Below are positions 1 through 15,123 of a DNA stretch of 64,000 nucleotides, piece by piece. Each line of letters opens with the position of its first letter. Position 1 is the stretch's first letter. The stretch is from Alphaproteobacteria bacterium (GTDB lineage: Bacteria > Pseudomonadota > Alphaproteobacteria > Bin95), in contig OZ224045.1 in the NCBI GenBank assembly GCA_963665325.3, positions 2,112,001-2,176,000 on the forward strand. The letters are read 5' to 3'. The notes beneath the pieces were generated by a model. It saw only the letters and a list, made by a program, of their open reading frames with translations, was not told the origin of the DNA and did not search any database. A program made the translations under genes and the position numbers.

Positions 1-1986
1 GGCGATCGCCATCAGCTCCTCGGCGACGAACCCGACATCGCCCTGGCGGCGCCAGACTGCGGAGATCATTCGGGTGACGGCCGTAACCCAGGCGTGGTGC
101 CGGGCGTCCTTCGTGGCGATGAAGATCTCGAAGGGACGGTTGTTGCCGTCCCGGTCAATGGTGTGGTTCAGCGTCAGGTAGAAGGCGTGCTCGCTGCCGG
201 GCCAGGGGACCTTGCGGGTCTGGCCGTGGAGGACGGAAGGCCGGTCCATGACGGTAGGGGCCGGCTCTCCGGGGCTGTCGCCGTCCGCGACCAGGATCGC
301 GCCGGTGATGTCGTTCGGCCGGTAGGTGGTGCAGCCCTTGCAGCCGGACTCCCAGGCGAGGAGGTAGATGTCCCTGAAGGCCTCGAAGGATATGTCCCTC
401 GGGACGTTCACGGTCTTGGAAACAGCGCTGTCGATATGCGCCTGGGCGGCGGCCTGCATCCGGACATGGTCCTCGGGAGATATGGTGCCGGCGTCGACGA
501 AATAGTCCGGAGGCAGCTCGTCGCCGCGCAGTCGGCGCCAGAGCGCCATCGAAGCGGATTCGACCCGCTCTTCGGTATGGGTGTTGTCCGGCTGCAGGAC
601 CCGGCGCGTGTAGCTGTGCGCGAAGACGGGTTCGATGCCGCCCGAGACGTTGCCGGCAACCAGGGAGATCGTGCCGGTCGGCGCGATCGAGGTGAGGTGG
701 GAGTTCCGGAGTCCGTTGTTGACGATGAAATCCAGCGTTTGCGGGTCGAGCTGCCTGGTGGTCTTGGTTTCGAGGAAGTGCTCGGCGTCCCAGAGCGGAT
801 AGGGCTCGGTCTCTGCGGCGAGGACCGCGCTTGCGCGGTAGGCGGCCGTCTGCACCATGGAGACGAGGTCGCGGGTGCGCTCGGCGGCGAGCTCGGAGCC
901 GTAGCGGATTCCCAGATACGCGAGCGCGTCGGCCAGGCCCGTGATGCCGAGGCCGAGGCGCCGCTTCGAGAGCGCCTCCTCGCGCTGTTGCTCCAGCGGA
1001 TAGAAGGAGGCGTCAACGACGCGGTCCAGCATCCGCACGGCCGTGCCGACCGTCCAGGCAAGGTGATCCTCGTTGATGTGCGCATCGTCCTCAAAGGGCG
1101 ACCGCACGAAGGCGGCAAGGTTGATGGAGCCCAGCAGGCAGGAGCCCCAGGGCGGGAGGGGCTGCTCGCCGCAGGGGTTGGTTGCGTAAATGGTCTCGCA
1201 GTGCCGGAGATTGTTCGCGGCGTTGATCCTGTCGATGAAGATCACGCCCGGTTCCGCGCAGTCGTAGGTCGAGCGCATGATCCGGTCCCAGAGTTCGCGG
1301 GCCGAGACCGTGCGATGGACTTCGCCGTTGAACACGAGGTCGTGGCCACCGTCCCGCTTGACCGCGTCCATGAAGTCGTCGGTGACCAGAACCGAGAGGT
1401 TGAACATGCGCAGGCGCTTGGCGTCGCGCTTGGCTTCGATGAACTCCCCGATGTCGGGATGGTCGATGCGCATCGTGCCCATCATGGCGCCGCGGCGGCT
1501 GCCGGCGCTCATGATCGTCTTGCACATGCTGTCCCACATGTTCATGAACGAGAGCGGCCCGGATGCGTCGGCGCCGACGCGGTGGACCGGGGCGCCCTTC
1601 GGACGGAGCGTCGAGAAGTCATGGCCGATGCCGCCTCCGGCCTGCATGGTCGTGGCGGCGTCCTTCAGCGCGTCCATGATGCCGTCGAGGCTGTCGTCGA
1701 TCCGGCCGAGCACGAAGCAGTTGATGTTGGTGACGCGCCGGTCCGTCCCGGCGCCGGCGAGGATCCGGCCGGCCGGCAGGAACTTCCAGCCGGACATGGC
1801 GTCCATGAACATCTGCTTTTCGGTGTCGTTCCCGGCCAGGAAGCCGGCAACGCGCCGGCGGGTGTCGTCCATCGTCGCGTCGACCGGCGTACTGTCCCGC
1901 TCCTTGAAGCGGTATTTCATGTCCCAGATGGTGTGAGCGACGGGCGGGAGCAGCTCGTCGCTGTCGGGCAGTGTCGCGGCGTCCAT
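1..1986 (-). CDS. nrdJ: Class II (adenosylcobalamin-dependent) ribonucleotide reductase, runs off the left edge
   Basis: Own translation of the minus frame from ATG 1986 (GGAGG upstream): FLPAGRILAGAG, TNINCFV, GGGIGHDFSTLRP, ATNPCGEQPLPPWGSCLLGSINL, IAPTGTISL, GCKGCTTYRP, then a TSCPD-like tail. Missing from the ORF track because there is no stop in the window. Confidence 0.93.
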   Translation of the reverse strand, partial: MDAATLPDSDELLPPVAHTIWDMKYRFKERDSTPVDATMDDTRRRVAGFLAGNDTEKQMFMDAMSGWKFLPAGRILAGAGTDRRVTNINCFVLGRIDDSLDGIMDALKDAATTMQAGGGIGHDFSTLRPKGAPVHRVGADASGPLSFMNMWDSMCKTIMSAGSRRGAMMGTMRIDHPDIGEFIEAKRDAKRLRMFNLSVLVTDDFMDAVKRDGGHDLVFNGEVHRTVSARELWDRIMRSTYDCAEPGVIFIDRINAANNLRHCETIYATNPCGEQPLPPWGSCLLGSINLAAFVRSPFEDDAHINEDHLAWTVGTAVRMLDRVVDASFYPLEQQREEALSKRRLGLGITGLADALAYLGIRYGSELAAERTRDLVSMVQTAAYRASAVLAAETEPYPLWDAEHFLETKTTRQLDPQTLDFIVNNGLRNSHLTSIAPTGTISLVAGNVSGGIEPVFAHSYTRRVLQPDNTHTEERVESASMALWRRLRGDELPPDYFVDAGTISPEDHVRMQAAAQAHIDSAVSKTVNVPRDISFEAFRDIYLLAWESGCKGCTTYRPNDITGAILVADGDSPGEPAPTVMDRPSVLHGQTRKVPWPGSEHAFYLTLNHTIDRDGNNRPFEIFIATKDARHHAWVTAVTRMISAVWRRQGDVGFVAEELMAIA

Positions 1987-2057
1987 GATAGGCCTCCGTC
2001 TGTTCGGTCCGCCTCGAAGAGGCTTCCCTCAAACTCCTGGGTTCGACCGGTTTCCGG

Positions 2058-2294
2058 TCATGGAAGATCCGGGGGGGCGTCGTCCGCATAGAGACCCGCA
2101 CAGGCGGGGTTCGCTGCGGCCTGTATCTGCGCGGCGCAGCCGGAACAGAGATCCGCTTCGATCCACCGGCACGGCCCGTCGAGTGCGTCCGCGCAGGCGT
2201 TCCTGTCCGAGTGGCGGCACTCGCGGTAGACTTGGTCTTGCGGTTCCGGCGGCGGGAGTTCCCGGCAAAGCCTCTCGGACGGGGCGTCAGCCAT
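2058..2294 (-). CDS. Small Cys-rich hypothetical protein
   Basis: 78 aa with 7 Cys; 8-nt overlap with the upstream ORF; co-oriented directly before nrdJ. Confidence 0.5.
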   Translation of the reverse strand: MADAPSERLCRELPPPEPQDQVYRECRHSDRNACADALDGPCRWIEADLCSGCAAQIQAAANPACAGLYADDAPPDLP

Positions 2295-2628
2295 GGTCCA
2301 GAAGTCTCCTGACTTGCGATTTGGCGCGGCGCAGGTCTGCGCTGAAATATTTCGGTGCCTGCCGCGGGAGGTGCGTCCGCAACGGCGTGGTCGCCTGCCA
2401 TTCAGTTCTGCCCCGGCCCAGCTTGACGAGCTCGCCCAGGAGATTGCGGACGTGTCCTCCCCTTCCGGTCCGCTGGACCCAGAAGACGGGCACGCTGCGA
2501 CGATCCCATGTCGGAAGGAAACCGTCCGGCTCCGTGTGGAGCTTTCCGAAACGCACGGTCACAGCGAGAGTCCTCCCGGGCGTGTAGGGGGTTGCGTCCG
2601 TCGACTCGATTTCGGCCGTGTCAGCCAT
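2287..2628 (-). CDS. Hypothetical protein
   Basis: 113 aa; 8-nt overlaps with both neighbours suggest translational coupling. Confidence 0.55.
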   Translation of the reverse strand: MADTAEIESTDATPYTPGRTLAVTVRFGKLHTEPDGFLPTWDRRSVPVFWVQRTGRGGHVRNLLGELVKLGRGRTEWQATTPLRTHLPRQAPKYFSADLRRAKSQVRRLLDHG

Positions 2629-3094
2629 GGCGTGCCCGGTCGAGAAGACCGTCCAGGGTCGCGGGCCGAGCGCCGGCCTGCAGGCATTTCAGCAGTTGCT
2701 GGTGATGCTCCTGGGACATGCCAGCGATCCGGACGAGGTCCCTCTTGCGCTCTGCGATGCGTGTGTCGGCCAGCTCGGCCTGAAGGGCCGGGGGGATGCG
2801 TTCGGCGATACGCACGGTCACCTGGATGGATCGGGTCGTGCAGCCGAGAACGCGCGCAGCGAAATCGGTGAAGCCGTATCGCTCTGGGTCGGGAACGTCG
2901 GATTGACGGTCCTCGCGGTTGCTGCCGGCGCGGAAGGCGGCGGACTGGCGATCTCCACCATGAGCGGTCGCCGGGTAATGCCGTTCGTGACGGCGCTTCC
3001 CGCGGGCAAGCGCTTGCGCCTGTTCCAGGGCGGTGAGCCGGCCGAAACGTTCGGGAAAGTCCGGAGCGGTGAGGAGGGGGACTGCTTTGGCCAT
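2621..3094 (-). CDS. ParB-derived HTH protein lacking the N-terminal CTPase domain
   Basis: MAKAVP start; LTALEQAQALARGKRRHERHYPATAHGGDRQS and IAERIPPALQAELADTRIAERKRDLVRIAGM align by eye to the C-terminal half of the ParBs at 4197 and 5817. Confidence 0.75.
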   Translation of the reverse strand: MAKAVPLLTAPDFPERFGRLTALEQAQALARGKRRHERHYPATAHGGDRQSAAFRAGSNREDRQSDVPDPERYGFTDFAARVLGCTTRSIQVTVRIAERIPPALQAELADTRIAERKRDLVRIAGMSQEHHQQLLKCLQAGARPATLDGLLDRARHG

Positions 3095-3258
3095 ATGCCT
3101 GTCCTTCAGGCCGTCTTGCCTGGCAGCGAACCGCGAGGCGCCGGTTGTGTGCAGGGAGGGCAAGGTGGATTGCCGCGGCATCGCCGGTGGGCGGCGACCG
3201 TGACACGGGAGCCGCGCGCGTTTAGCATCGGGCAGCGTCGACGACCGGAGTGAACGGT

Positions 3259-3837
3259 ATGAGTGCGCAGGGAGCGTTGCGGCGGTCCAGGTCGGCCCGC
3301 AGGGCCAGCTACCGGGACGTGCTCGACGCGCCGGCGCACATGGTCGCGGAGATCGTCGAGGGCGCGCTGCACATGCAGCCGAGACCGGCCAGTCGGCACG
3401 CACTGGCGGGATCGTCGCTCGGAATCGAGATCGGAGGCCCGTTCCAGAAGGGCCGGGGCGGACCCGGCGGCTGGTGGATCGTCGACGAGCCCGAGCTCCA
3501 TTTCGGGGAGGACGTCGTTGTGCCGGACCTCGCCGGCTGGCGCCGGGAGCTGATGCCCGACTATCCGGACGTGCCTTATTTCACGCTGGCGCCGGACTGG
3601 GTGTGCGAGGTTCTTTCGCCTTCGACGCGGAAGTTCGACCTCGAGAAGAAGCGCCCGGTCTATGCGCGGGAGGGCGTCGGTCACCTCTGGTTCGTCGATC
3701 CCGGTGCGAGAACGCTGGAGGCGTTCGCCCTGGAGGATGGCTCCTGGAAGCCCGCCGGCGCGGCGCGGGACGATGACCCGGTGTCCTTTCCGCCCTTCAA
3801 GGCGGTGACCTTCCCGTTGGACGCTCTCTGGCCCTGA
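3259..3837 (+). CDS. Uma2/DUF820 family PD-(D/E)xK endonuclease-like protein
   Basis: EIVEGALHMQPRP, VVPDLAGWRR, APDWVCEVLSPST, YAREGVGHLWFVDP. Confidence 0.9.
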   Translation: MSAQGALRRSRSARRASYRDVLDAPAHMVAEIVEGALHMQPRPASRHALAGSSLGIEIGGPFQKGRGGPGGWWIVDEPELHFGEDVVVPDLAGWRRELMPDYPDVPYFTLAPDWVCEVLSPSTRKFDLEKKRPVYAREGVGHLWFVDPGARTLEAFALEDGSWKPAGAARDDDPVSFPPFKAVTFPLDALWP

Positions 3838-3960
3838 CACTGTGTGAACCGGCCCGGGTCGCGTTCGGCCCGGTTCGGTCATGGCCATGCAGCCGCAACG
3901 CCAGGCTACAGCGGTGCCGTATCTCCGTTTGGAATCCATGACAGGATTGAAAGCGGGAAA

Positions 3961-4080
3961 ATCAAAGTGGGGATAATTCACATTTGATCGGCCGTGAGGC
4001 CGATTTTCAAAGTGGGTATTGTACCAACTTTGATCGGTGCGGGGCCGGAAGACCAAAGTGGGTATTATACCAATTTTGAT
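3961..4080. repeat. Three near-palindromic 26-27 bp AT-rich repeats with 46-bp period (candidate parS/operator array)
   Basis: CAAAGTGGGGATAATTCACATTTGAT (3963-3988), CAAAGTGGGTATTGTACCAACTTTGAT (4008-4034), CAAAGTGGGTATTATACCAATTTTGAT (4054-4080); 19-bp GC-rich spacers. Confidence 0.85.
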
Positions 4081-4196
4081 TTTTTCGGCGCCCGGCGCAG
4101 GCCTGAAGGCCGCCTCGATCAAGGAGAGACAATAGCGCGACGCGGCGGTTGTTGCAAGGGGTGCATTCATCTGTTTGTCGGGCCTCGATAGGCTTG

Positions 4197-5102
4197 TCAG
4201 GAACTCGTGGGTTGTCCGGCGCCGCCCTGTCCGTTCATGAGCTCGAGCCAGGCGATGAACTCTTCTTGCTCTTCGGCGCTGGCGGCGATCCACAATTTCT
4301 GGAGGCGCTCCAGGGTGGTCTTTTCCGGGGAAGGTTCGGCACCGGCGGGTGGCTCCGGAGCTTCGTCCGGTGGCTGTTCCTGTTCTCGGCGGGGATAGAC
4401 GTCGGACAGGGCCTCGACTTCGTAGTTGGCGCTCTGGAGGTCCTGTAGAAGGGCGTCCTGTTCGTCTGAGTCCATGCCGGAAATGGTGAAGAGGTCGCCT
4501 TCGCGGTGCGCGATGGGTGTCATGGCGAGCTCCTCGCGCAGCTCGTCGGTGATCTTGTCTCCAATACGGAGCGCCCGGCGGATCGTGTAGGAGCTGAAGG
4601 GAGTGAACGATGCGGTTGCGGCGACGAAACCCTGCTGCGAGCCATCGGCGTTCTGGTCCTGGAAGTCGCTGCTTCTTCGGTCGCCTCCGCGCCGGGTCTC
4701 CGGATAGAGGCGCTCGTAGATCTGCTTGCGCCGAGAGAGGAACAGGCCGCGGTCGAGCGGGTTGAGCTCGGCGCGCATCAGGTTCTCGTCGATCTCGAGC
4801 AGGGCCAGCGTGTCCTCGTCGAGCAGGTCGAGAACGAAGGCCTCGATATGCGGCCAGGCCAGGAAGCGTGCGGCCTGGACGCGATGGGCGCCGGAGACGA
4901 GCGCGTAACGGTCGCCGTCCATGCGCACCTGGATCGGATACTGAAGCCCGTGCAGCTTCATGCTCTCGGCAAGGTATTGGACGGTTCCGCCGTTGACGGT
5001 CCGGAGGCGCTTGCCGAGATCGATCAGGTCCAGCTCCAGAAGGACCGTCTGGCGGGGTTGTTCCCGCACGATGACGGGGGCGGCGGCCGGAGCGTCCATC
5101 AT
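4197..5102 (-). CDS. parB: ParB family protein, full-length (copy 2)
   Basis: LAESMKLHGLQYPIQV, LVSGAHRVQAA (GxxRxxA), EIDENLMRAELNPLDR, YPETRRGGDRRS, HTH. Confidence 0.9.
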   Translation of the reverse strand: MMDAPAAAPVIVREQPRQTVLLELDLIDLGKRLRTVNGGTVQYLAESMKLHGLQYPIQVRMDGDRYALVSGAHRVQAARFLAWPHIEAFVLDLLDEDTLALLEIDENLMRAELNPLDRGLFLSRRKQIYERLYPETRRGGDRRSSDFQDQNADGSQQGFVAATASFTPFSSYTIRRALRIGDKITDELREELAMTPIAHREGDLFTISGMDSDEQDALLQDLQSANYEVEALSDVYPRREQEQPPDEAPEPPAGAEPSPEKTTLERLQKLWIAASAEEQEEFIAWLELMNGQGGAGQPTSS

Positions 5103-5281
5103 TCTTCTCCTTCAGGCCCGTCGGGTAGTGAGGGGATCGTTGGATGTGCGCTGTCCGGTTCGGGCCAGGCGTCCTGGAGGGGGTCGAAGATCTGCTTTCG
5201 TGCCGCGAGCAGGCGGGCGCGGTCGAGCGGAGCAAGTCCCGGTCGGCGCGGCGCACCATCCATGTCGGCCAGGGCGGTCAT
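5099..5281 (-). CDS. 60-aa mini-ParB fragment (single conserved helix)
   Basis: MTALADMDG...GLAPLDRARLLAARKQIFD matches ELNPLDRGLFLSRRKQIYE of ParB; ATGA overlaps at both ends. Confidence 0.6.
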   Translation of the reverse strand: MTALADMDGAPRRPGLAPLDRARLLAARKQIFDPLQDAWPEPDSAHPTIPSLPDGPEGEE

Positions 5282-5820
5282 GACCCTGCATCCGGGTCGG
5301 CAAGCCACTCGCGGAATTCGTCGCGCTCGGCCCGGGAGGAGTTGCGCCAAATGCGCTTGAAGCGGTCGAGATTGCTTGGGGTTGGCGCCGGCGCGTCCGG
5401 GTTCGCCATGAGAGCGGACAGGGTGGCAGGCGGCTGTGCCGCTTCTTGCAGGCATCGCAGTAGCTGCTGCTGGTCGTCAGCGTCCATGTCGGCGATTTGC
5501 TCCAGGTCTCGAGTTCGCCTGGCAATCGGTGTGTTTGCGAGAGCGTCCAGGAGCGAGATTTCGATCCGCGCTCCGATCCTGGCGGCACGCTGGATGGTGC
5601 GCATGGACCACGGTGTCGACGCGGCGGCAACTGCCGCGAATGAGGGTGGGCGTTCCGTGGCTGTGATTTCGCGTAGAAACTGAGGGATGCTGAGGTGGGC
5701 GCCTCGTTTGGTTTCGGGATAGCAGTGCTCGTAGACCTGTTTCTCCTTCGCCAGATAGCGTGCGCGGCCCAATGGAGTTAGCGAGGTGAAAACATCGTCG
5801 TTTTCGGGCGAAGTGCTCAT
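5278..5820 (-). CDS. ParB-derived HTH protein lacking the CTPase domain
   Basis: LTPLGRARYLAKEKQVYEHCYPETKRG, WSMRTIQRAARIG, TPIARRTRDLEQIADMDAD; ATGA overlaps. Confidence 0.8.
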   Translation of the reverse strand: MSTSPENDDVFTSLTPLGRARYLAKEKQVYEHCYPETKRGAHLSIPQFLREITATERPPSFAAVAAASTPWSMRTIQRAARIGARIEISLLDALANTPIARRTRDLEQIADMDADDQQQLLRCLQEAAQPPATLSALMANPDAPAPTPSNLDRFKRIWRNSSRAERDEFREWLADPDAGS

Positions 5821-6755
5821 TTCTGTTCATCCGCGTGCTGCTGCTGGAGCCAGGTGTAAAACCGCCGCTGATGGGATTGAGGCGTCTTGTCCCAGAGTTT
5901 CTGCAGACGCTCGAAGGGGTCGGGTCTGGATGAGGGCCTGTAAGGGTTCGTCGTAAGAGCGGAGAGAGAGAGCGGCTGTCGTTCCGCGTTCTGGATGCGT
6001 TGCAGCAGGTCCTGCTGCTTGTCGGCGTCCATGTCGGCGATGCGCTCCAGGTCTTTCCGCCGACGGCCAATTGGCGTGCCGGAAAGAGCCTTGCGAAGGT
6101 CGGGATCGAGCCGCTCCCCGATGCGGGTGTAGACGTGAATCGTGTGGGGGGACCACCGGGTTGAAGCCGCGGTATCTTCGACGAATGAAAGCGGACGGGC
6201 TTGGGGGGTGTCATGGCCCTCTTGATCAAGTTGTCGTTTCGACAGGTTGATATTATTTCGGTATTGCAAGCTCTTACGATCTCCCCCGTGCCTGGTTTCC
6301 GGATACAGGCGCTGGTAGATCTCCTTGCGCGTGGCGAAGAAATGGGCCCTGTCGACCGGATCGAGCTCGGCGCGGCAAAGGTTCTCGTCGACTTCGAGAA
6401 GTCTCGCCTCTTCCTCCTCCAGGTCATCGACCAGGAATGCCTCGATGTGCGTCCATCCGAGCTTGCTGGCTGCGGCGATGCGGTGGGCACCCGCGATCAG
6501 ACGGAACCGGCCGGGCTCGATGGTCCTGATCTGTATGGGGTAGATCTGCCCGCGGGCCTCCATGGATTCCGCGATGTGGTCGACGGCTGCCTCGTCAACC
6601 GACCGAAGCCGGTCCTCGACTTCGATCATGTCGATCGGGGTTGGCAGCGAACGGCGGTGGGGAACCGCATTCGGTAGGTTGGCTGCTTCCGGAGCTCTGG
6701 GTGCGTTGGATTTTCCCTGGGCCATCTTGGTTTTGAGCTTGGCAAGGCCGGTCAT
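5817..6755 (-). CDS. parB: ParB family protein, full-length (copy 1)
   Basis: IAESMEARGQIYPIQI, LIAGAHRIAAA, EVDENLCRAELDPVDRA, YPETRHGGDRKS; ATGA overlap with parA. Confidence 0.9.
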   Translation of the reverse strand: MTGLAKLKTKMAQGKSNAPRAPEAANLPNAVPHRRSLPTPIDMIEVEDRLRSVDEAAVDHIAESMEARGQIYPIQIRTIEPGRFRLIAGAHRIAAASKLGWTHIEAFLVDDLEEEEARLLEVDENLCRAELDPVDRAHFFATRKEIYQRLYPETRHGGDRKSLQYRNNINLSKRQLDQEGHDTPQARPLSFVEDTAASTRWSPHTIHVYTRIGERLDPDLRKALSGTPIGRRRKDLERIADMDADKQQDLLQRIQNAERQPLSLSALTTNPYRPSSRPDPFERLQKLWDKTPQSHQRRFYTWLQQQHADEQK

Positions 6756-7432
6756 CGGGAATCTCCGTTGGGTCGGGAAGCGTCCGAAACGACGGTGAGT
6801 GAGGGTTCCGGCCAGGCGAAGACGGCTGCAGCGAAGGCGCGCGCCTCGGCTGCGGCAGGGGATCCGGGCGTGAATTCGCTCACGCCAAGGCCGTAGGTGC
6901 AGGCGTGGGCGAAGGCGGACCGTTGACGAAGCATGGTCGGGAGGATCGGAATCTTCTCGTCCAACAGGAGTTGCCGGGCTATGCCGACCAGACGGTGACC
7001 GCGCGTCGGTGCTGCCGAGAAGACGATGACCGCTGACGTCTGCGCCATTCGGCAGACGTCGAGGGTCATCCGGATCGAGGCGAGGTCGAAAACCTGGGGC
7101 CGGCAGGGAATGACGACGAGGGTGGCGAGTTGGGCCGCGGCCAGCATTGACATGTCCGTGTGTCCGGGTGTGTCGAGGACGATGACCTCGTAGCCCCGCT
7201 GGGCCGCCCCGCCGATCTCACGGGGGAGCCGGCTCGGCTGGGTCGTGATGACGTCTGGGAAGGGCTTCTCGCGGAGATCGCTCCAGGTGCCGGAGGAGCC
7301 CTGCGGGTCGGTATCCACGATCATCGCCCTCTTTCCGGCCAGGCAGGCCTCGACCGCGAGGTTCGTGGAGATCGTCGTCTTGCCGGATCCGCCCTTCTGG
7401 GAGATGACGGCGTAGATGTCGGGTTCGGTCAT
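6752..7432 (-). CDS. parA: Short ParA family partition ATPase (no N-terminal HTH)
   Basis: Deviant Walker A QKGGSGKTT, VDTDPQGS, VLDTPG, VIPCRP. Confidence 0.92.
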   Translation of the reverse strand: MTEPDIYAVISQKGGSGKTTISTNLAVEACLAGKRAMIVDTDPQGSSGTWSDLREKPFPDVITTQPSRLPREIGGAAQRGYEVIVLDTPGHTDMSMLAAAQLATLVVIPCRPQVFDLASIRMTLDVCRMAQTSAVIVFSAAPTRGHRLVGIARQLLLDEKIPILPTMLRQRSAFAHACTYGLGVSEFTPGSPAAAEARAFAAAVFAWPEPSLTVVSDASRPNGDSR

Positions 7433-8340: not shown

Positions 8341-8507
8341 GTGAGCTGTCCTTTCGGGCGGTCCGGTCGTGGGCTTGAGGCCGTTCTGTGTGTTGGAATG
8401 CTGTGGGCGCTGGCGTAGCCGGTGCTCTGGAAGCGCTTCCGGTCGATGGTGGCGGCCCGGGCCGGCGCCGAATTGAACGGCGCTGCCGCAGGCTGTAGGA
8501 TCGGCCC

Positions 8508-8708
8508 ATGGACAGGTACAGAATCGGTGGCGAGCCGCCCGCCATACCGGGATTCCCGGAGGACTGGCGCGACCGGATCAAGGCCGACCTCGCGGCCCAG
8601 CTTGAGGCCGGGGGCACGCTCTACAGCCTCCGCCCGGACGGTGCCTATGTCGCGCGCACCAGGGAGGGAGACCGGGTGCTCGGTTGGCCCGACTGGGAGT
8701 GCGACTGA
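8508..8708 (+). CDS. Small protein, putative antitoxin partner of the zeta-like toxin
   Basis: 66 aa, directly upstream of and co-oriented with the P-loop gene. Confidence 0.5.
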   Translation: MDRYRIGGEPPAIPGFPEDWRDRIKADLAAQLEAGGTLYSLRPDGAYVARTREGDRVLGWPDWECD

Positions 8709-8728
8709 CCCGGCAGGCGCCGTTCGCC

Positions 8729-9301
8729 ATGGCAACACTGCATGTGGTTGCCGGCCCGAACGGATGCGGCAAGTCCACCCTGACAAGAATGAGGGGCTTC
8801 GGCGATATCGAGGCCATCGACCCGGACGCCATTGAGCGCGATCAAGGGTCCGGAAACCCGGGCGCGGCCGCCCGCGAGGCGTTGCGCCGGCGGCGGGACG
8901 CACTTGCATCCGGCCGGTCCCACCTGGTGGAAACCACCCTTGCCGGCGCCGGCGTTCTCCGCCACATGGAGGTCGCGCGGAGGGCAGGCTACCGGATCGT
9001 CCTGCACTATGTGTCCGTCGCCTCGTCCGCCCAGGCGCTTGATCGTATCCGCAACCGGGTCGCGTTCGGCGGTCACGATATCCCGGAAGCGGACGTGCGG
9101 CGGCGATTTGCGCGCTCGCACGCCAATCTGCCGGCGGCGATGGTGCGGGCGGACCTGTCTCTGCTCTACGACAACGCCGATTCTGATCGGCCGCATCGGG
9201 CGTTTGCGATTCTGGGCGAGGGGACAAGGTGGATTGCCAATGCGGTTCCAGGTTGGGCGGTCGCGGCTCTCGCCCGGGCCGGGCCGCTACTACCGGGGTG
9301 A
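8729..9301 (+). CDS. Zeta-toxin/AAA_33-like P-loop kinase
   Basis: VVAGPNGCGKSTLT, IDPDAI, VETTLAG, RVAFGGHDIPEADVRRRFARSHANL, LYDN. Confidence 0.85.
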   Translation: MATLHVVAGPNGCGKSTLTRMRGFGDIEAIDPDAIERDQGSGNPGAAAREALRRRRDALASGRSHLVETTLAGAGVLRHMEVARRAGYRIVLHYVSVASSAQALDRIRNRVAFGGHDIPEADVRRRFARSHANLPAAMVRADLSLLYDNADSDRPHRAFAILGEGTRWIANAVPGWAVAALARAGPLLPG

Positions 9302-9375
9302 GACCGGCGGACAATGCCAACCTGCGGTTGGATCGGCCGTTGGTGGAAACGGCCTTTGTGGCTATGGTGGCTATC

Positions 9376-9627
9376 ATGAAACAGATCGCAGCCAGGGATG
9401 CCAAGAACCGCTTCGGGCAATTTCTCGATGCCGCCCAGAGCTCGCCCGTGAGCGTGACCAAAATGGGTCGCCCGGTCGGGGTAATGATGTCGATGCAGCA
9501 CTATGAACGGCTGCGCGGTGCCGCCTGGGAACGTTTGGCTGCGACGATGGATGCAATAGGCGAAGAAGCATCCGCGAACGGTTTGACGGAGGACGGACTC
9601 GAAGCGCTTCTGGCGGATGAGAGCTGA
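9376..9627 (+). CDS. Phd/YefM family antitoxin
   Basis: MKQIAARDAKNRFGQFLDAAQSSPVSVTKMGRPVGV; tandem GTGGCTAT repeat just upstream (possible operator). Confidence 0.9.
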   Translation: MKQIAARDAKNRFGQFLDAAQSSPVSVTKMGRPVGVMMSMQHYERLRGAAWERLAATMDAIGEEASANGLTEDGLEALLADES

Positions 9628-10039
9628 CCGCGTTGTTGCCGATACCAACGTCCTGATCAGCGCGGTGCTGCGCCCTCAGGGACCGCCGCGCGCAGCGATC
9701 GATGCGGTCAGGCTGGAGAACGGTGTTCTCCTGTTGTCTGAGGGGACCCCGATGGAGCTTCGGACGCGGATTTTGGGCCGGAAGTTCGATCGTTATGTCG
9801 GCCGGGATGTGCGGACAGCGTGGGTGGCCCAGCTTGAAGCGGTCTCGGAATGGATTCCGGTCTTTGGCGCAAGGCTCGGGTGTCGGGATCCGGCCGACGA
9901 CAAGCTGCTTGAGACGGCCCTGATGGGCGATGCCGGCTGCCTGATTACGGGTGACCGGGACCTCTTGGCGATGTCGCCGTTTCGCGGGATTCCTGTGCTG
10001 ACGCCGGCTGCTTTCCTGGACAGCGTGAGGAGCGGATAG
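9617..10039 (+). CDS. PIN-domain (VapC-like) toxin
   Basis: VVADTNVLISA, CRDPADDKLLETA, LITGDRDLL; overlaps the antitoxin. Confidence 0.9.
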   Translation: MRADRVVADTNVLISAVLRPQGPPRAAIDAVRLENGVLLLSEGTPMELRTRILGRKFDRYVGRDVRTAWVAQLEAVSEWIPVFGARLGCRDPADDKLLETALMGDAGCLITGDRDLLAMSPFRGIPVLTPAAFLDSVRSG

Positions 10040-10059
10040 CGCCAATCGGGACAGGCCTG

Positions 10060-12081
10060 TCACAAGCCAGTCTCCAAGCTGACGGAATCAGACACCTCGA
10101 ACGAGGTCCTGGACCGGTAGAGGAGCGAATTGTGGGGGAACAGTTCCGGGAGAGACCCGGGGCGTGTGGCTTCGTGGAACACGATCCTGGCGAAGTCCTT
10201 GCGGTTCCGTTCCTCTTCGAAGGCAGTTGCCGCGAGCGCGGCGGCGGCGGCCCGGCGGGGGCCGAGAATTCGGCAGGCGCGCTGCCAGTCGTTCTCCGAG
10301 AGACCCAGCCGCCCGGTGGCAAGGCCGTGTGCGGCCGCGGTCAGCTCGTCCCAGTCCAGTTCGGAGCCGTCGTCGATGCGCTCGCGTATCGAACGGGGGC
10401 CGTGCCGCTTCATGACTTCCGGGCCGGGCAGAAGTTCGGGAGCTGCGGGCTGGAATTCACCGTTCTCGAGCGCGGCGACGACGGCCAGGTCGATCTCGGC
10501 CTCGATCGCGGAGAGAGCCCGTGCATGGATGCCGTGAAACCAGTTCCTGTCGTATTGGCTCCTCAGCGCGGCGATCCGGTGGATGAGGCGGGGCTCCGGG
10601 GCGAGGTGCGGGCGCGGCGCGGCATACAGGACCGCGGCGGCCGCGCCTCTGGGCCCGACTTTGTCTTCGAGACGGGCCCAGGTCTCGTCGTCGATGTCGA
10701 GCGTCTGTCGGCCCAGCCGTCGGGCATTGTCGATCACCGAGTCCCAGCCGTGGCACTGGCCGGGAGCGGCGGAGACAGGCGCCCATTGCGTTTCGGGGAT
10801 GCGTCCCCGGATGTCGTGGATGTCGGGGACCGGCTTGAGAGGCTCTGTGAAGGCGATGGCTGCCGGAGAAGTGCCGAACCCGTCTCCAGCGGAGACGATC
10901 TCGTCGAGATCGAGTGTGCCAGCGCGGGCCAAGCGTATCGCCGACTCGAAACAGAGCTCGGCCAGGCCGTAATGCCGGGGACTCCAGTTATCCCAAGACA
11001 GAGCCAGCATGGCGACGACCGTGAAGGCGCGCTGTCCCAGCAGCTCCTTCGCCTCCGACAGGTCGGGCTTGTTGGCGAACCGGTACCGGTTCGGAAGATG
11101 GATGCGCACCATCCGGTCGTAGAGATTGTGCCAGGAGCACATGTCCGTGTCCGGGCCTGTCGGCGAGTGCGGGCAGCGGCGTCTGTACAGTTCGCGGGCC
11201 CGCTCCAGCGACGGGGTCCGGACGTCCAGGGTTCCGGAGTTCGGGAGGAGGGACAGCCGCGCGGTTGCCTGGACGAGCTTGCGGGCGGTCCGGTCGAGGG
11301 TGGCGGGCTTCTTGAGCGCGGCGGCGACCGTGCCGCGCAACGAGCCCGCAGGGTCGGAGACGAGCTCGAGCGACTGCTTGGCCATTGCGATGATGGCGGC
11401 CGCAGCCGCGCCGTGCCGCCCGAGCTGCGTCCGGGCCTGCCGCCAGTCCTCTCTCGGGACGAGCCGGTCGAAGAGGGCGATGCGGCGGGCCTGGTGGATG
11501 ACCTGGGGCCAGAGGGGCGCCTGGCGGTCCGGCCCCGGCGGATGGATATGGCGAAGGAGAGTCGCCAGGACATTCGGGTCGGGAAGGCCAGGCGCCGCGA
11601 CTGCGGGCTCCGTCTCGTACCGGACTGCCGCGAGCAGCTCTTCCGCCCGGGCCCGCAGGTCGCAATCGCCCCGCGCCAGTGCGCTCAGGGTCTCGTCGAG
11701 CGCAGTCGGTCCCGGCAGGGTTCCGAGGTCCAGAGATTCGGCGACATCGGCAAGAATGACGGCTGCTGCTGCGGCTTCCGGGCCGACCTTGCGGGCATGG
11801 GCCTTGAAATGATCCTCGGGCTCTTCGACGTAGAGGTGCGATGGGGTTATCGGACCGCTGTCCCCGTCATCGAAATGGTGGAAGGGACTGCCCGGATATC
11901 CGGCCCAGAGGAAAGGAAGAATGTGGGGCGCCAGGCGTGCGAGGTCCTCCGGGGTTTCGGGCGGGCCGCCCGGGAGCACCCGGGGAGCGGCCTGCGACCA
12001 GGGCAGCAGCTGGCGCAGGGTCTCCAGTGAGGGAAGGGGGACGGGCGGCCGGTTCCCGGCCGCGATGTCGGTGTCGGTCAT
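10060..12081 (-). CDS. 673-aa protein of about five tandem RepC C-terminal-like domains
   Basis: Five units with the pattern (L/V/T)P..W..(L/V)...A....W..A...(L/V)G..(G/R)AAAA: KVGPEAAAAAVIL, DWRQARTQLGRHGAAAAAII, EAKELLGQRAFTVVAML, TWARLEDKVGPRGAAAAVL, LGLSENDWQRACRILGPRRAAAAAL; ATGA overlap with the upstream gene. Confidence 0.7.
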   Translation of the reverse strand: MTDTDIAAGNRPPVPLPSLETLRQLLPWSQAAPRVLPGGPPETPEDLARLAPHILPFLWAGYPGSPFHHFDDGDSGPITPSHLYVEEPEDHFKAHARKVGPEAAAAAVILADVAESLDLGTLPGPTALDETLSALARGDCDLRARAEELLAAVRYETEPAVAAPGLPDPNVLATLLRHIHPPGPDRQAPLWPQVIHQARRIALFDRLVPREDWRQARTQLGRHGAAAAAIIAMAKQSLELVSDPAGSLRGTVAAALKKPATLDRTARKLVQATARLSLLPNSGTLDVRTPSLERARELYRRRCPHSPTGPDTDMCSWHNLYDRMVRIHLPNRYRFANKPDLSEAKELLGQRAFTVVAMLALSWDNWSPRHYGLAELCFESAIRLARAGTLDLDEIVSAGDGFGTSPAAIAFTEPLKPVPDIHDIRGRIPETQWAPVSAAPGQCHGWDSVIDNARRLGRQTLDIDDETWARLEDKVGPRGAAAAVLYAAPRPHLAPEPRLIHRIAALRSQYDRNWFHGIHARALSAIEAEIDLAVVAALENGEFQPAAPELLPGPEVMKRHGPRSIRERIDDGSELDWDELTAAAHGLATGRLGLSENDWQRACRILGPRRAAAAALAATAFEEERNRKDFARIVFHEATRPGSLPELFPHNSLLYRSRTSFEVSDSVSLETGL

Positions 12082-12905
12082 GGTTTTTCGCCCTTGAGCT
12101 CGCGGGACTTGATGAACGCGGTCGTGCCTTCATGTGTGGAAAGCTGCTTCAGGATCTTGTCGGGCAACTCTTCCGGGACCGGTCCGGGATGTTCGAGGAT
12201 TTCGTTTACCGTGATGCACACGGCGATCACCGCGCCGAACTCGTCCTGGCGACGGCAAAGGGTCTTCCAGACGCGCGGCGATATCCGGAACTCGGGCAGG
12301 GCCCGCTTCGTCGCCGCGATCACGGTCTTGCAGTCCAGCCTGCCGAGAGGCGGCATGAACCGCGCGAGAGGCACGGGCATGCGGCTGACCGCCAGGGCGG
12401 CCAGCCAATGATCGATATCGGCCGGCGCAAGCGCGTCGCGCTCGGCTTCGGTCATCGTCTCGATCTTTTCGACGAGCGCGTGCGCTTCCCTGATCGAGGG
12501 GGGCATGCGCTCCCGTCCCCGTATCTCCACGGGCGGGAGATCGGCGAAAGCTGCGGGAGATATTGCCTGGAGCGGGGTATCGGAGGATCCGGGATCGTTG
12601 TCGTTCCCGATCTCGACCGGCACGAAAGCTCCGATCTCTCTGAGCCGGTGCGCATATTCCAGAAACTCGGCCTCGGTCAGTCCCAGTGCCATCATGGCTT
12701 GCTGCGGTGTCACGGTTGATACGGGACGCCCGCCCGCGAGCCATTCCTTCTCGTCGATGCTGCCAATCCAGTATTCCAGCAGGCGGACCGGCCCTTCCGG
12801 ATCGCTGCCCAGCCCCGCGCGCGCCGCAACAGCGGGGAGTCGCAGAAGCCGGATAACCTCCCGGGGGTCGGTGTCGTTTGGCAAGCCGTTGGCGAGGTCA
12901 GGCAT
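12078..12905 (-). CDS. Shortened, divergent RepC paralogue (wHTH-like N-terminus plus C-terminal domain)
   Basis: VRLLEYWIGSIDEKEWLAGGRPVSTVTPQQAMMALGLTEAEF resembles the RepC wHTH; FRISPRVWKTLCRRQDEFGAVIAVCI resembles the RepC C-terminus; 8-nt overlap with the repC stop. Confidence 0.65.
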   Translation of the reverse strand: MPDLANGLPNDTDPREVIRLLRLPAVAARAGLGSDPEGPVRLLEYWIGSIDEKEWLAGGRPVSTVTPQQAMMALGLTEAEFLEYAHRLREIGAFVPVEIGNDNDPGSSDTPLQAISPAAFADLPPVEIRGRERMPPSIREAHALVEKIETMTEAERDALAPADIDHWLAALAVSRMPVPLARFMPPLGRLDCKTVIAATKRALPEFRISPRVWKTLCRRQDEFGAVIAVCITVNEILEHPGPVPEELPDKILKQLSTHEGTTAFIKSRELKGEKP

Positions 12906-14598
12906 GGTGCAGTTCCGTTTCCCTTTCAGCTCTGCGGCTGCTGTTTCCTCCGGTGCGGACCGTTGCTTGCTCTGCAAGGAGCTGCTCGTAGTGGCGCTCG
13001 ACTTCGTCGAGATACGGCCAGCAGCGATATCGGGAGACCAGCTCTCGCCAGGCCAGAAGAAGACCGCGCGGGTCTGCGGCGGTCCGGCAGATGGCTGCCA
13101 TGGTCGCCTGGTCGGCCCGCTGCCCGCCGACTCGCAGCGGTACGGGTCGAAGGCTGGGCTCCGGACCGGGGATGGAATGTTCTTCCTCTGTTGCTGGCGC
13201 GACCCGGTCGACGTGAAGCTGCTCGCTGCGCTCGATCGCGCCCCATAGCGAGCCCGCAAGGTTGAGAGTTCCCTTCCGGGCCCGCTCCGTCAGCTTCCGG
13301 AAATAGCCGCCGGCGCTGGTGTGGATCTCGCCGGCGTCGTCCCGCGAGGCGACGATCACGACCGCCATGGATGCCCAGGCAGGCGAGAGAGCCGTACAGG
13401 CGTCGCGCCAGGCTTCGGGCGATATCCCGAGTTCGCTGCGGGTCCGCGCGGCGGCCTCGAAGAACTCCTCTGCGGTCGGAGGCCGCCCGGCAGGCAGGAA
13501 ACGCGACTGGCGCGGGCTGAGGGAGTCCAGGATGAGCCACGCCGGCGGTCCTCCGGGGACCGGCGAGCGGCCGAGGCCGGAGGGACTACCGTCTCCCCTT
13601 TCCGGCGAAGGGCGGGCGGCAGGCGCTGTGCGCGGTTTCGGAGAAGGCTCTGTCGGTGGGTCTGCCGCTACAAGAGTACTCTCTTGGAATTGGTCTGTAA
13701 TTGAATTGGACCCTGTCGTCAGAGGGTACCCCAGGGTGAAAATTTCAGCATCTTTTTCGGATTCAGGCGGTGCGGAGACAGAGGGTTCGACCTCCTCCAC
13801 GATCGGCAGTTCGCCAGCATCCAGGCGCGGTTCGGTGAGTGTGCGAGCCTGGTGCTCAACGTCGAGGGCCTCGTCCCGAAGAGAACGAAGGATGGCGATG
13901 TTGGAGCGGTCGATACGCTTCGCGTCGGGGAGCGCCAGGACACGGGCGAGCAACGGCTGGAGTGCGCCTGCGGGCGCCTCGTCCCTGCGCAGCGCGGCCT
14001 GGAGAAGAATCCGAGTGTGGCAGCGGATGGTCGAAATCCTGTGGACCAGGCCCTCGCTCTCGATCTCCTCTTCCTCGGCCAGCAGCTGCGCGTCATCGAC
14101 TTCATCGGCGATGGCGTCCAGGGGGGCGAAGGTCACGCCATTGGCCCAGCGGATGCGGCCGTCCTGCTTGCTGCGCTTGCCGTCGCGGCGCCGGCTGGCC
14201 GTGTCGGTCCAGTAAAGGAAGCCGGCCCGAGCGAGATCCTTCTCGATGTTGGAGACGGTGCGCGGGCTGAGGTCCAGCTTCTCGGCAAGTTTCCGTTTGC
14301 TTATCCAGACGGTGGGCGGGCAGTCGCCCGGCTCGAAGTCGTTCCGGAAAAGCTTCTTGAACGACAGACGGAGATATTCGACATGGACGGGCTTCAAGCC
14401 GAAGCGCTCCCGGACGCGCCTGACCTCGAGGCGGGCGTGAAGCGCCCAATGGTCGAGGCCGTCCTCGCGGCCCGTCCAGGCCTCGGCGGCATCGCGTGCA
14501 CGGTCGAACTCGGGCTTGTGGAGTCGGCAGCCGGTGGAACCGGGGCCGCGCGGGGTGTTGCCGCTGCGAGAGCGGCCTGTACCGTCTTGTTCTGACAT
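12898..14598 (-). CDS. repC: repABC-type replication initiator RepC with an extended C-terminus
   Basis: DFEPGDCPPTVWISKRKLAEKLDLSPRTVSNIEKDLARAGF, DTASRRRDGKR, ANGVTFAPL, LGISPEAWRDAC, SAGGYFRKLTERARKGTLNL; start MSEQ chosen over 14781. Confidence 0.85.
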   Translation of the reverse strand: MSEQDGTGRSRSGNTPRGPGSTGCRLHKPEFDRARDAAEAWTGREDGLDHWALHARLEVRRVRERFGLKPVHVEYLRLSFKKLFRNDFEPGDCPPTVWISKRKLAEKLDLSPRTVSNIEKDLARAGFLYWTDTASRRRDGKRSKQDGRIRWANGVTFAPLDAIADEVDDAQLLAEEEEIESEGLVHRISTIRCHTRILLQAALRRDEAPAGALQPLLARVLALPDAKRIDRSNIAILRSLRDEALDVEHQARTLTEPRLDAGELPIVEEVEPSVSAPPESEKDAEIFTLGYPLTTGSNSITDQFQESTLVAADPPTEPSPKPRTAPAARPSPERGDGSPSGLGRSPVPGGPPAWLILDSLSPRQSRFLPAGRPPTAEEFFEAAARTRSELGISPEAWRDACTALSPAWASMAVVIVASRDDAGEIHTSAGGYFRKLTERARKGTLNLAGSLWGAIERSEQLHVDRVAPATEEEHSIPGPEPSLRPVPLRVGGQRADQATMAAICRTAADPRGLLLAWRELVSRYRCWPYLDEVERHYEQLLAEQATVRTGGNSSRRAERETELHHA

Positions 14599-14656
14599 GA
14601 TTTTCGACGCTCGGCGGCGTCCATGCCTCGATCCCCACTTTTTTCGCTTTCCCGGC

Positions 14657-14685
14657 TTGACTGGGCAGACCGGGGGGGTTACCTT
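14657..14685 (+). promoter_or_regulatory. Sigma70-like promoter antisense to the repC leader
   Basis: TTGACT (14657-62), 17-bp spacer, TACCTT (14680-85). Confidence 0.55.
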
Positions 14686-14691
14686 CCGCGC

Positions 14692-14800
14692 TTGAGGCGC
14701 TTCGGAAGGTCCTTGATTGTCGTGTGGGGACTGAAGCTTCAGTCCGATTTTCGGGCTAAGATCGGGGGGCGGAAAGGGCATTCCGCTCCCCGCTTTCTTT
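14692..14800 (+). ncRNA. Putative counter-transcribed RNA (ctRNA) controlling repC
   Basis: Lies downstream of the promoter; perfect 18-bp palindrome GGACTGAAGCTTCAGTCC (14728-45); terminator-like GGGGGGCGGAA-AGGGCA-TTCCGCTCCCC followed by GCTTTCTTT. Confidence 0.5.
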
Positions 14801-15123
14801 AACCGCTTGACCGCTGAGGGCTAACCGAGCACAATTCTCCGGCTCCTAAGGTTAGAAGCCTGCCGGCTGTGGTGGCTAAGACAGGAGCATGTGCCAGCCC
14901 GGCGGGATCGCGGCGCCATCTTCGGGCTCCAGGTCCTGTCGCCCGAGCGTCTTTTGGAACAACAGCACGGGGGCTGCCGCCGCTACATCGCTGTCGGTCT
15001 GGCGGGTGCCGATATGGCTGCGGATATCGGCAAGATCGTCGGGCATGGGTCGCGTTTCCCCCTTGTCTCGTGTCTCGTCGCGACTCTATCACAGCGATTG
15101 CAGCGCGAGGAAAGCGCCAGCGG

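Follow-up and report, generated by a model that had tools for sequence, protein, structure and literature searches.

A repC-first replication and partition locus with shortened RepC and ParB paralogues in an uncultured alphaproteobacterial genus

Genes and features of the locus

The DNA analyzed (the window) is a stretch of 64,000 nucleotides (nt) of an alphaproteobacterial genome (contig OZ224045.1), positions 2,112,001-2,176,000 of C1, the largest contig (2.57 Mb) of a source genome (G000) with five contigs, 5.58 Mb and 67% GC. The subject is the locus at positions 1-14,900, where genes for a RepC-type initiator, a ParA ATPase and ParB proteins lie together with shortened paralogues of RepC and ParB. 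Genes were called using open reading frame (ORF) maps and codon-position GC (GC3), and were assigned to families using Pfam, NCBIfam and PHROGs. On the minus strand the order is repC, p275, p673, an inserted toxin-antitoxin (TA) cassette, p303, parA, parB1, dN1, mini and parB2, followed by an inverted-repeat array, an inserted Uma2 gene, dN2, p113 and nrdJ (Table 1). A reading of the sequence alone had proposed this order and these identities, and both were borne out by the maps and the family scans. That reading also counted two small ORFs before nrdJ. One of them, p113, is 81-93% identical in three relatives; the other, at 2058-2294, had no support in the ORF/GC3 maps or the family scans. 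Contiguity was confirmed by an 11,051-base contig from one sequencing run, possibly that of the source sample itself; this contig covers 3582-14632 with 0 differences.

Eight junctions between real genes overlap, each by ATGA or by 8 nt. The ATGA type is found at p275/p673, p303/ParA, ParA/ParB1, ParB1/dN1, dN1/mini and mini/ParB2, and the 8-nt type at RepC/p275 and dN2/p113. An ATGA at 8337-8340 was discounted as a junction, the partner of p303 there being a spurious ORF. A scan of positions 1-16,000 against Rfam gave a single match, at chance level. The relatives used for comparison (G013, G016, G007, G004, G012 and G005) are six further species in the uncultured genus of G000.

RepC carries both an N-terminal domain (NTD; RP-C N, PF03428, 3.6e-15) and a C-terminal domain (CTD; RP-C_C, PF11800, 2.1e-20), each over its cut-off; the NCBIfam equivalog NF040974 was not reached (110 bits, cut-off 150). 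The start of repC is most likely Met62 at 14598, because the homologues (one of them named RepC by NCBI) are 565-567 amino acids (aa) long and, in the longest ORF, the 5' 183 nt show non-triplet indels between species and an in-frame stop in G016. The AlphaFold2 (AF2) model of RepC consists of a winged-helix NTD, a disordered linker at residues 259-344 and a helical CTD. The NTD resembles the DnaD N-domain (Z 7.4-7.5; best Foldseek E 7.6e-3); Foldseek with the RepC model gave nothing at E<=1e-3. The search with the whole model was dominated by a generic three-helix segment at residues 176-260 and left the CTD untouched, and the RepC sequence had no match among PDB sequences.

Copies of the CTD were counted using an iterated profile (jackhmmer) seeded with the RepC CTD: RepC and p275 have one each, p303 has two and p673 has five. 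The CTD of p275 was found at 3.4e-13, and hhalign aligned it to the RepC CTD at E 9.4e-5. Among ten p275 homologues, five are 272-275 aa long and three, of 167-192 aa, have the CTD half only; invariant residues are plentiful in the C-terminal half. The repeats of p673 lie at residues 89-152, 163-276, 288-397, 418-495 and 548-637. This protein has 11 relatives among 1.84 billion representative proteins and no match in 72,556 plasmid records. It is collinear with six relatives at 25-86% identity, with no frameshifts (four proteins of 669-689 aa and the ORFs of 763 and 776 aa in G013/G016), and every repeat keeps invariant Trp, Gly, Leu and Pro residues. For p303 the RP-C_C match (3.4e-7, 30.9 bits) falls slightly under the cut-off of 32.6. 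RP-C_C was absent from all 14 control genomes and present in 9 of the 401 genomes sampled from the class, so nine copies in 7 kb are not due to chance; two RP-C_C matches in one ORF were seen, in the 401-genome sample, only at this locus.

The repeats are mutually only 13-29% identical and are therefore old. The five-copy and two-copy proteins that the sequence-only reading had called amplified are present, and recent amplification is not what produced them. In a tree of CTDs the three true RepC CTDs of G000 formed a clade of their own (support 96/99). Mimicry by the accessory CTDs of the other two RepC CTDs of G000 was considered and dropped, as no such grouping appeared in the tree. A 5.38-Mb contig elsewhere encodes P0038, in which a RepC N-part (79% identity) is fused to the 440 C-terminal residues (84%) of a relative of p673. 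P0038 contains both RepC Pfam domains, and its sequence is taken as evidence of recombination among CTD repeats or modules.

The ParA protein is of the Walker type (Pfam matches to AAA_31, CbiA and ParA), scores 163.5 bits against NF041546 (4.6e-48), under the cut-off of 180, and is 80-97% identical across six relatives. Both full-length ParBs pass the cut-off of 26.3 bits for the ParB_N (CTPase-fold) domain, ParB1 with 34.2 and ParB2 with 28.5. The N-domain of ParB1 resembles Noc and ParB structures by sequence, and a GxxR motif (GAHR) and ENLxR were seen in the ParB alignment. Profile matches to the phage-type family phrog_3264 run end to end (ParB1 3e-54, ParB2 1e-48), and ParB2 matches 10 phage records at 25-42% identity versus only 2 of 72,556 plasmid records. 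By these matches ParB1 and ParB2 are members of a family that occurs chiefly in phages of alphaproteobacteria, and the combination of RepC, a short ParA and phage-type ParBs put forward from the sequence alone holds.

The two proteins differ at their N-termini. A basic peptide of the MxxxxKLxxKL type is present in 7/7 ParB1 orthologues and 0/7 ParB2 orthologues; the latter begin with MMDAPAA in 7/7 and have no basic residue there. In characterized ParABS systems a basic N-terminal ParB peptide activates ParA. Because only ParB1 has this peptide, it is by analogy the likely partner of ParA, and ParB2 would likely be a ParA-blind ParB in the style of KorB, Noc or VirB.

The shortened paralogues dN1, dN2 and mini align to the middle and C-terminal parts of the full ParBs at 33-43% identity. 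On phrog_3264 (337 positions) dN1 covers 144-326 and dN2 covers 144-279, and Pfam gave no ParB_N match in either. By alignment they are ParB-derived DNA-binding domains and not complete ParBs. In a collection of 5.8 billion proteins dN2 has 36 homologues, 32 of them 156-168 aa long and none with a Pfam domain. The six best structural matches to the AF2 model of dN2 (mean predicted local distance difference test, pLDDT, 80.6) were all ParB-family DNA-binding domains: Spo0J (Z 6.9), KorB (6.0 and 5.6), Caulobacter ParB (5.7) and SopB (5.7 and 5.1). These Z values are middling and agree with the sequence paralogy, and the modeled fold of dN2 is read as that of a ParB DNA-binding domain. Together with the iterated CTD profile and phrog_3264, the dN2 structure matches uphold the similarity of the accessory ORFs to RepC and ParB on which the sequence-only reading had relied. 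In a tree of the DNA-binding region all dN2 proteins, the copy on contig C3 of G000 included, formed one clade (100/99) and all ParB2 proteins another (99/98), with dN1 on long branches near ParB1. As the dN2 clade includes the C3 copy, it is older than the split of the two paralogous loci.

Further clusters of at least three adjacent matches to the ParB DNA-binding domain were observed elsewhere in the genus (G001:C29:11,991-14,024; G006:C205:15,583-18,049; G016:C1:767,198-774,329), so multi-ParB operons recur beyond the locus studied here.

Upstream of repC lies a non-coding leader of ~280 nt, which is the best-conserved DNA of the whole locus; the RepC proteins themselves are just 33-77% identical. 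The alignment shows long invariant blocks and indels that are not multiples of 3. No match to Rfam, its counter-transcribed RNA (ctRNA) families included, was found at E<=1. On the plus strand the leader contains a predicted promoter for an antisense RNA (TTGACT-17-TACCTT at 14657-14685, hexamers read by eye, in an invariant block), a 16-nt palindrome, GACTGAAGCTTCAGTC, at 14729-14744, and a terminator-like GC-rich hairpin of 12 bp at 14763-14792 followed by a T tract. The palindrome recurs in 6/8 loci scanned, which are all six orthologous ones. Pairing in the hairpin is intact in 83/83 cells on the plus strand versus 79/84 on the repC-sense strand, a difference that arises from G-U pairs turning into A-C, and one pair is compensatory (GC in 4, CG in 3). 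The paralogous C3 locus retains the hairpin and the T tract with different letters, and the predicted 116-nt RNA has a folding z of -2.3. In position and layout the predicted RNA, support for which is modest, resembles the counter-transcribed RNA described upstream of repC in repABC operons (PMC6090056).

The AT-rich dip within repC, a candidate oriV, falls in the NTD-CTD linker of the AF2 model. Excerpts of PMC3155836 and PMC6090056 place the experimentally mapped oriV of repABC plasmids inside repC, at the same position in p42d and pTi. In the array between parB2 and dN2 an inverted repeat, AT-rich and of the type AAAATCAAAGT-N13-ACTTTGATTTT, occurs three times at 46-nt spacing; promoter-like hexamers, read by eye, precede the array. 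The array region has the lowest GC of the region, and its motif is unique to the locus within the 5.58-Mb genome. Two copies with the same spacing lie downstream of ParB2 in five other loci, making 6/8 loci scanned; the motif was not found in the remaining two, G013 and the simple locus L016. In relatives without the Uma2 insertion dN2 follows directly after the array. The array (3950-4085) and the leader palindrome are candidates for parS.

Homology among the seven orthologous loci begins sharply near 14875. A 56-aa ORF on the minus strand (14876-15046), 89% identical in G004 and G005 and without a Pfam match at E<=5, ends exactly where this homology starts; insertion or rearrangement of the module may have truncated a gene here and left this ORF as its stump.

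Table 1. Features of the repC-par locus, with positions in the window and dN/dS (ratio of nonsynonymous to synonymous substitution rates, pairwise Nei-Gojobori).
Feature	Positions	Strand	Description	dN/dS
Leader upstream of repC	14599..14875	-	conserved, non-coding; alignment of 7 orthologous loci	
Predicted antisense (counter-transcribed) RNA	14657..14803	+	promoter-like site, palindrome, terminator hairpin	
repC	12898..14598	-	initiator; 566 aa from Met62; longest ORF extends to 14781	0.39-0.66
AT-rich dip in repC	13661..13780	.	candidate oriV; 47-49% GC, composition scan	
p275	12078..12905	-	short RepC paralogue, 275 aa; one CTD at residues 172-255	0.37 (vs G005)
p673	10060..12081	-	673 aa; five RepC-CTD repeats; Pfam RP-C_C 3e-15	0.60-0.80, dS saturated
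p303	7429..8340	-	303 aa; two CTD repeats (8-113, 180-290)	
parA	6752..7432	-	short ParA ATPase, 226 aa, without N-terminal DNA-binding extension	0.10-0.23
parB1	5817..6755	-	full-length; ParB_N; Lys-rich N-terminal peptide	0.27-0.34
dN1	5278..5820	-	ParB without N-domain; DNA-binding part and C-terminal helix	0.30-0.45
mini	5099..5281	-	mini-ParB remnant, 60 aa; aligns to ParB residues ~119-170	0.45-0.84 (32-60 codons)
parB2	4197..5102	-	full-length; ParB_N; without basic N-peptide	0.17-0.36
Candidate centromere/operator region	3950..4190	.	promoter-like TTGCAA-17-TATTGT, then inverted-repeat array (~3950-4085)	
dN2	2621..3094	-	ParB DNA-binding domain only, 157 aa	0.26-0.32, like full ParBs
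p113	2287..2628	-	113 aa; overlaps dN2 stop by 8 nt	0.11-0.26
nrdJ	1..1986	-	class II ribonucleotide reductase; Pfam 3.4e-125; cut by window edge	0.14-0.21
Uma2-family endonuclease gene	3259..3837	+	Pfam 7.4e-22; insertion between array and dN2	
Addiction-type cassette	8729..10039	+	inserted between p673 and p303	
Zeta/AAA_33-like kinase	8729..9301	+	Pfam	
Phd antitoxin	9376..9627	+	PF02604 4.9e-11	
PIN_3 toxin	9617..10039	+	PF13470 5.9e-16	

Conservation, constraint and neighboring genes

The gene order was sought in other genomes, as the sequence-only reading had suggested, and RepC-ParA-ParB1-ParB2-dN2 is kept in all six relatives and in the C3 locus of G000. The C3 locus encodes RepC, a two-CTD protein, ParA, ParB1', a mini-like relic, ParB2' and dN2'. 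In 5/7 orthologous loci repC and parA have a CTD-only ORF between them, and RepC carries a fused second CTD in G004, in G007 and in two further loci of G000 (C3 and the simple locus C1b). There are eight accessory CTDs at the locus of G000, 4 or 5 in G013/G016, two plus the fused one in G004 and one in G005; G007 and C1b have only the fused second CTD. True orthologues of dN2 (>260 bits) were found in 7/17 genomes of the genus and any match to the dN2 profile in 12/37 genomes of the order; two sister genera gave no such match in 20 genomes.

The truncated copies had been held to be maintained rather than debris, and dN/dS had been named as a check on this. Constraint, conserved length and collinearity argue that the claim stands for dN2, p275 and the five-repeat protein, with p113 added as a maintained gene by the same kind of sequence evidence; the ratios of dN2 and p275 are low (Table 1). 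It does not extend to mini, with its higher ratios, or to dN1, which across seven loci is full-length in two, reduced to its last ~100 aa in two and absent from three. Mini and dN1 look like relics or dispensable parts.

Beyond dN2, the p113 family had no match in Pfam (to E<=5) or PHROG, and the best Atlas score was 0.84 without a family. The next gene, nrdJ, had been regarded as the module's own ribonucleotide reductase. It lies separately, ~300 nt downstream of p113, adjoins the module in 5/7 loci visible, and evolves like a core gene. We regard it as a frequent conserved neighbor and not as a demonstrated member of the module. In two relatives nrdJ is split near residue 217-241, by an insert of ~2.1 kb in G016 (locus L010, 3320-7380, with separate stop-to-stop ORFs) and of ~3.5 kb in G005 (locus L015, 12554-18018).

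Two insertions of plus-strand genes interrupt the locus. The Uma2-family gene is present at seven places in G000 (63-80% identity, one copy split), and its position varies between relatives, being in the ParB2-dN2 gap in G000, G004 and G005 and after p113 in G007. In the addiction-type cassette the Phd and PIN genes overlap at 9617-9627, the adjacency of a Phd/YefM-PIN type II TA pair. None of the cassette genes had a match in the other loci compared at the thresholds used, and two ORFs near the zeta-like gene gave nothing in Pfam at E<=5.

Replicon context and relation to known systems

The locus shares its contig with dnaA in four of five genomes tested (G000, G012, G013 and G016). G005 differs: there a 2.2-Mb record with the title 'chromosome: 3' carries the locus, and dnaA is on a different contig. 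RepC N-domains were found in 5/5 relatives tested, the single-contig genomes G016 and G012 included, and G000 has three RepC loci and four ParA-ParB loci. From this arrangement the locus may be where a large secondary replicon, or one fused with the chromosome, has its origin region.

GC skew did not locate an origin, as no contig shows a clean V. Instead, a one-sided domain of strong skew was found at each RepC/par operon, reaching from the repC leader to 55-155 kb downstream of the operon. For the C1 domain at 1.97-2.127 Mb in G000 the values are +0.09 to +0.22 per 10 kb, compared with ~0 +/- 0.04 elsewhere. The domains are C1:1,970,000-2,127,000 (with window positions 1-14,900 at its right end), C1:2.29-2.345 Mb, C3:458-625 kb and G005:C3:721-787 kb. 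The last of these has a skew of -0.08 to -0.16 over ~65 kb, in a block collinear with the G000 domain. The skew at GC3 tracks the DNA strand and not the coding strand. The polarity is the same at the other RepC and ParAB loci of G000, the operon sense strand being always C-rich. The domain is possibly a relic, or the ongoing result, of unidirectional replication of a plasmid-like block, or it may reflect a fork trap at the locus.

Within the skewed domain, at G000:C1:1,984,000-2,101,000, an insertion sequence with two ORFs (IS; 507-aa and 292-aa ORFs) was observed in eight near-identical copies. In size the 292-aa ORF recalls 282- and 246-aa DnaA-like/IstB-type matches; the coordinates differ and identity is unconfirmed.

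Among known systems, repABC operons (p42d, pTi) have in common with the locus a RepC with an NTD, a hydrophilic linker and a CTD; a stretch rich in AT midway through repC; a gene for a short antisense RNA upstream of repC (here predicted); co-directional ParA- and ParB-family genes; and palindromic sites. The differences are that repC comes first here and last in repABC, and that ParA has 226 aa compared with a RepA of ~400 aa (TIGR03453, 49.1 against a cut-off of 348). ParB1 is not RepB (TIGR03454, 50.1 against 201.5) but belongs to phrog_3264, and RepC, under its equivalog cut-off, is 25-34% identical to plasmid RepCs (PLSDB). In addition there are CTD-only RepC paralogues and three ParB paralogues, and the Rfam ctRNA families are unmatched. 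Excerpts of PMC3155836 state that the last 39 aa of the RepC CTD determine incompatibility in p42d and give dimerization of the CTD into an inactive form as a hypothesis. PMC6090056 reports that the CTD alone cannot bind DNA yet confers specificity, that RepC binds the origin cooperatively, and that RepC replicons are without iterons.

The partition part also has counterparts elsewhere. As in RK2/IncP plasmids (IncC, KorB, KorA), ParB-family regulation would stand beside partition with a small DNA-binding partner in the operon (PMC13768133, in part), and KorB is among the best structural matches of dN2; dN2, however, is a paralogue of the ParB DNA-binding domain and not of the KorA type, and two full ParBs coexist here. 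The locus shares with type Ib ParABS a short Walker-type ParA, a partner with a basic N-peptide, and repeat arrays as centromere (here a candidate). It differs in having a ParB of the helix-turn-helix (HTH) type with ParB_N, as in type Ia and chromosomal systems, and in having two full ParBs plus truncated ones. The ParB-like proteins of alphaproteobacterial siphophages (phrog_3264; Rhizobium phage RR1-B and Rhodobacter phage RcWaterboi among others) match end to end, but the phage gene is single, near the genome end and without parA or repC, as judged by gene positions alone. Iteron plasmids control their initiators by dimerization, handcuffing or shortened isoforms. The locus would share with them the concept of initiator-derived polypeptides that lack full activity and limit initiation; it differs in that the shortened forms are separate ancient genes with up to five copies of one domain.

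Searches of open-access text, limited to titles and abstracts for truncated ParB paralogues, found no paper on CTD-only RepC genes or on an operon that joins ParB1, ParB2 and dN2. The sequence-only reading had put the locus forward as a candidate new system; it is not categorically new. The hallmarks of repABC are kept (RepC with NTD and CTD, the AT-rich region of repC, the predicted antisense RNA and par genes in an operon), and the locus is a lineage-specific derivative of repABC.

Proposed working and alternative explanations

The balance tips, by a little, toward the locus controlling replication and partition in a low-copy replicon of the RepC type, native to a single uncultured genus of alphaproteobacteria, as a rearranged and elaborated repABC derivative. 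The conserved shortened copies of initiator and partition proteins probably tune the copying and division of that replicon. By analogy with repABC, RepC would fire at the AT-rich stretch within its own gene, and the predicted antisense RNA would limit repC expression. The CTD-only proteins may act through the RepC CTD, titrating or bridging RepC and so setting the frequency of initiation; they are regarded as modulators of RepC because they are CTD-only and coupled to repC, and because in repABC the CTD sets specificity and incompatibility and is the proposed site of dimerization. ParA and ParB1 would move the replicon. Bound to the repeat array, ParB2 and the clamp-less dN2 would form a second ParB complex, with a regulatory or silencing role and no communication with ParA. 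Going by its modeled fold, dN2 could bind DNA without a CTP clamp or contact with ParA, and could serve as a competitor, a roadblock or an operator-binding repressor at the array. The idea of the sequence-only reading that the accessory copies serve as catalytically incomplete regulators, decoys or agents of interference stays an inference.

Several findings weigh against such a replicon control. All genomes compared are metagenome-assembled, which makes the assignment to replicons uncertain, and with dnaA on the same contig the origin may be embedded in the chromosome and need not fire. The sign of the skew is opposite to that expected from bidirectional firing at repC/oriV on that side. The antisense RNA is drawn from seven closely related sequences, and 20 of 500 column shuffles equaled the observed score. 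A profile of 15 CTD copies reached only E 0.15 at best against PDB sequences, so that the fold of the CTD is not identified, and the accessory CTDs sit on long separate branches of the tree, grouping with no RepC CTD of G000. Their number, 0 to 8 per locus, would fit dispensable or conflict genes equally well, and the multi-CTD proteins have dN/dS of 0.6-0.8 at saturating divergence. In G000 the cassette insertion parts p303-parA-parB from the repC promoter.

Some of these points suit a plasmid- or chromid-derived origin that lies silenced in the main chromosome, where CTD-only RepCs and N-domain-less ParBs would be dominant-negative proteins or conditional licensers that keep a chromosome with two kinds of origin stable. 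The contigs shared with dnaA and the separate 'chromosome 3' of G005 are in keeping with this, as are the RepC loci still present in the single-contig genomes, the sharp upstream homology boundary (~14,875), the adjoining plasmid-like, IS-rich domain of deviant skew, and the role of the CTD as incompatibility domain in repABC (excerpts of PMC3155836). Yet G005 has the same accessory genes off the dnaA contig, so their presence is not tied to embedding; repC, its leader and parA are constrained, which is unexpected for a permanently silent origin; and the contig structure of metagenome assemblies is weak evidence on replicons. We consider a silenced origin unlikely. A more elaborate form of the idea, to which we attach rather little probability, is that RepC-CTD arrays, ParA-blind ParB2 and clamp-less dN2 form a licensing or silencing layer on chromosomes with both DnaA and RepC origins. 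Such a layer would decide whether an embedded RepC origin fires and would insulate the adjoining 60-155-kb domain; the skew domain, whose start coincides exactly with repC in two or more species, would then be the mutational footprint of unidirectional replication or of a fork trap.

Conflict or coordination between replicons is improbable in our view, although G000, with its several RepC and ParA-ParB loci, offers the setting. CTD copies would exclude other RepC replicons or incoming plasmids, and extra ParBs would occupy foreign or sister centromeres. The CTD copies evolve fast and vary in number, modules recombine naturally, as the RepC-N::p673 fusion of P0038 suggests, and the CTD sets replicon-specific incompatibility in p42d (PMC3155836, in part). 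The failure of accessory CTDs to group with the other RepC CTDs of G000 speaks against this, as does the conservation of dN2 and ParB2 with one cognate-looking array, at their own locus only. It is very improbable that the locus is mostly debris, that is, decaying tandem duplications of repC and parB whose frames stay open since high-GC DNA has few stops. Mini (60 aa, dN/dS up to 0.84), the patchy and truncated dN1, the ratios of the multi-CTD proteins and the unstable CTD copy number could be explained in that way. Against it are the dN/dS of 0.11-0.37 and the conserved lengths and starts of dN2, p275 and p113, the age of the dN2 clade, a coding-frame GC3 of 0.82, start-stop overlaps that are kept, and the five-repeat protein, which at 25-40% identity retains its length and collinearity in six relatives without frameshifts. 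Multi-CTD proteins might, finally, be positive scaffolds that gather RepC or host replisome factors at oriV for more cooperative opening. RepC has an NTD like the N-domain of DnaD, and in DnaD-class initiators a second domain contacts host replication proteins; the CTD genes would, to judge by their junction overlaps, be translationally coupled to repC. Cooperative binding of RepC to the origin and the specificity conferred by the CTD (PMC6090056, in part) point in the same direction. Separate CTD proteins are absent from simple loci (C1b of G000, and L016) and from G007, however, and neither the fold nor the partners of the CTD are identified; the chance of a scaffold is slight indeed.

A large share of the accessory genome of alphaproteobacteria, and even of their core genome, is carried by RepC replicons, and the function of the RepC CTD in dimerization and incompatibility has so far been a hypothesis only. 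A CTD encoded alone once, twice or five times provides natural separation-of-function alleles with which that hypothesis can be tested. ParB1 with its predicted ParA-activating peptide, ParB2 without it and dN2 with DNA binding only would amount to a natural dissection of ParB within one operon. With the locus on dnaA-sharing contigs in some species and on a separate contig in another, the genus is a candidate system for the study of how secondary origins are tolerated after replicon fusion.

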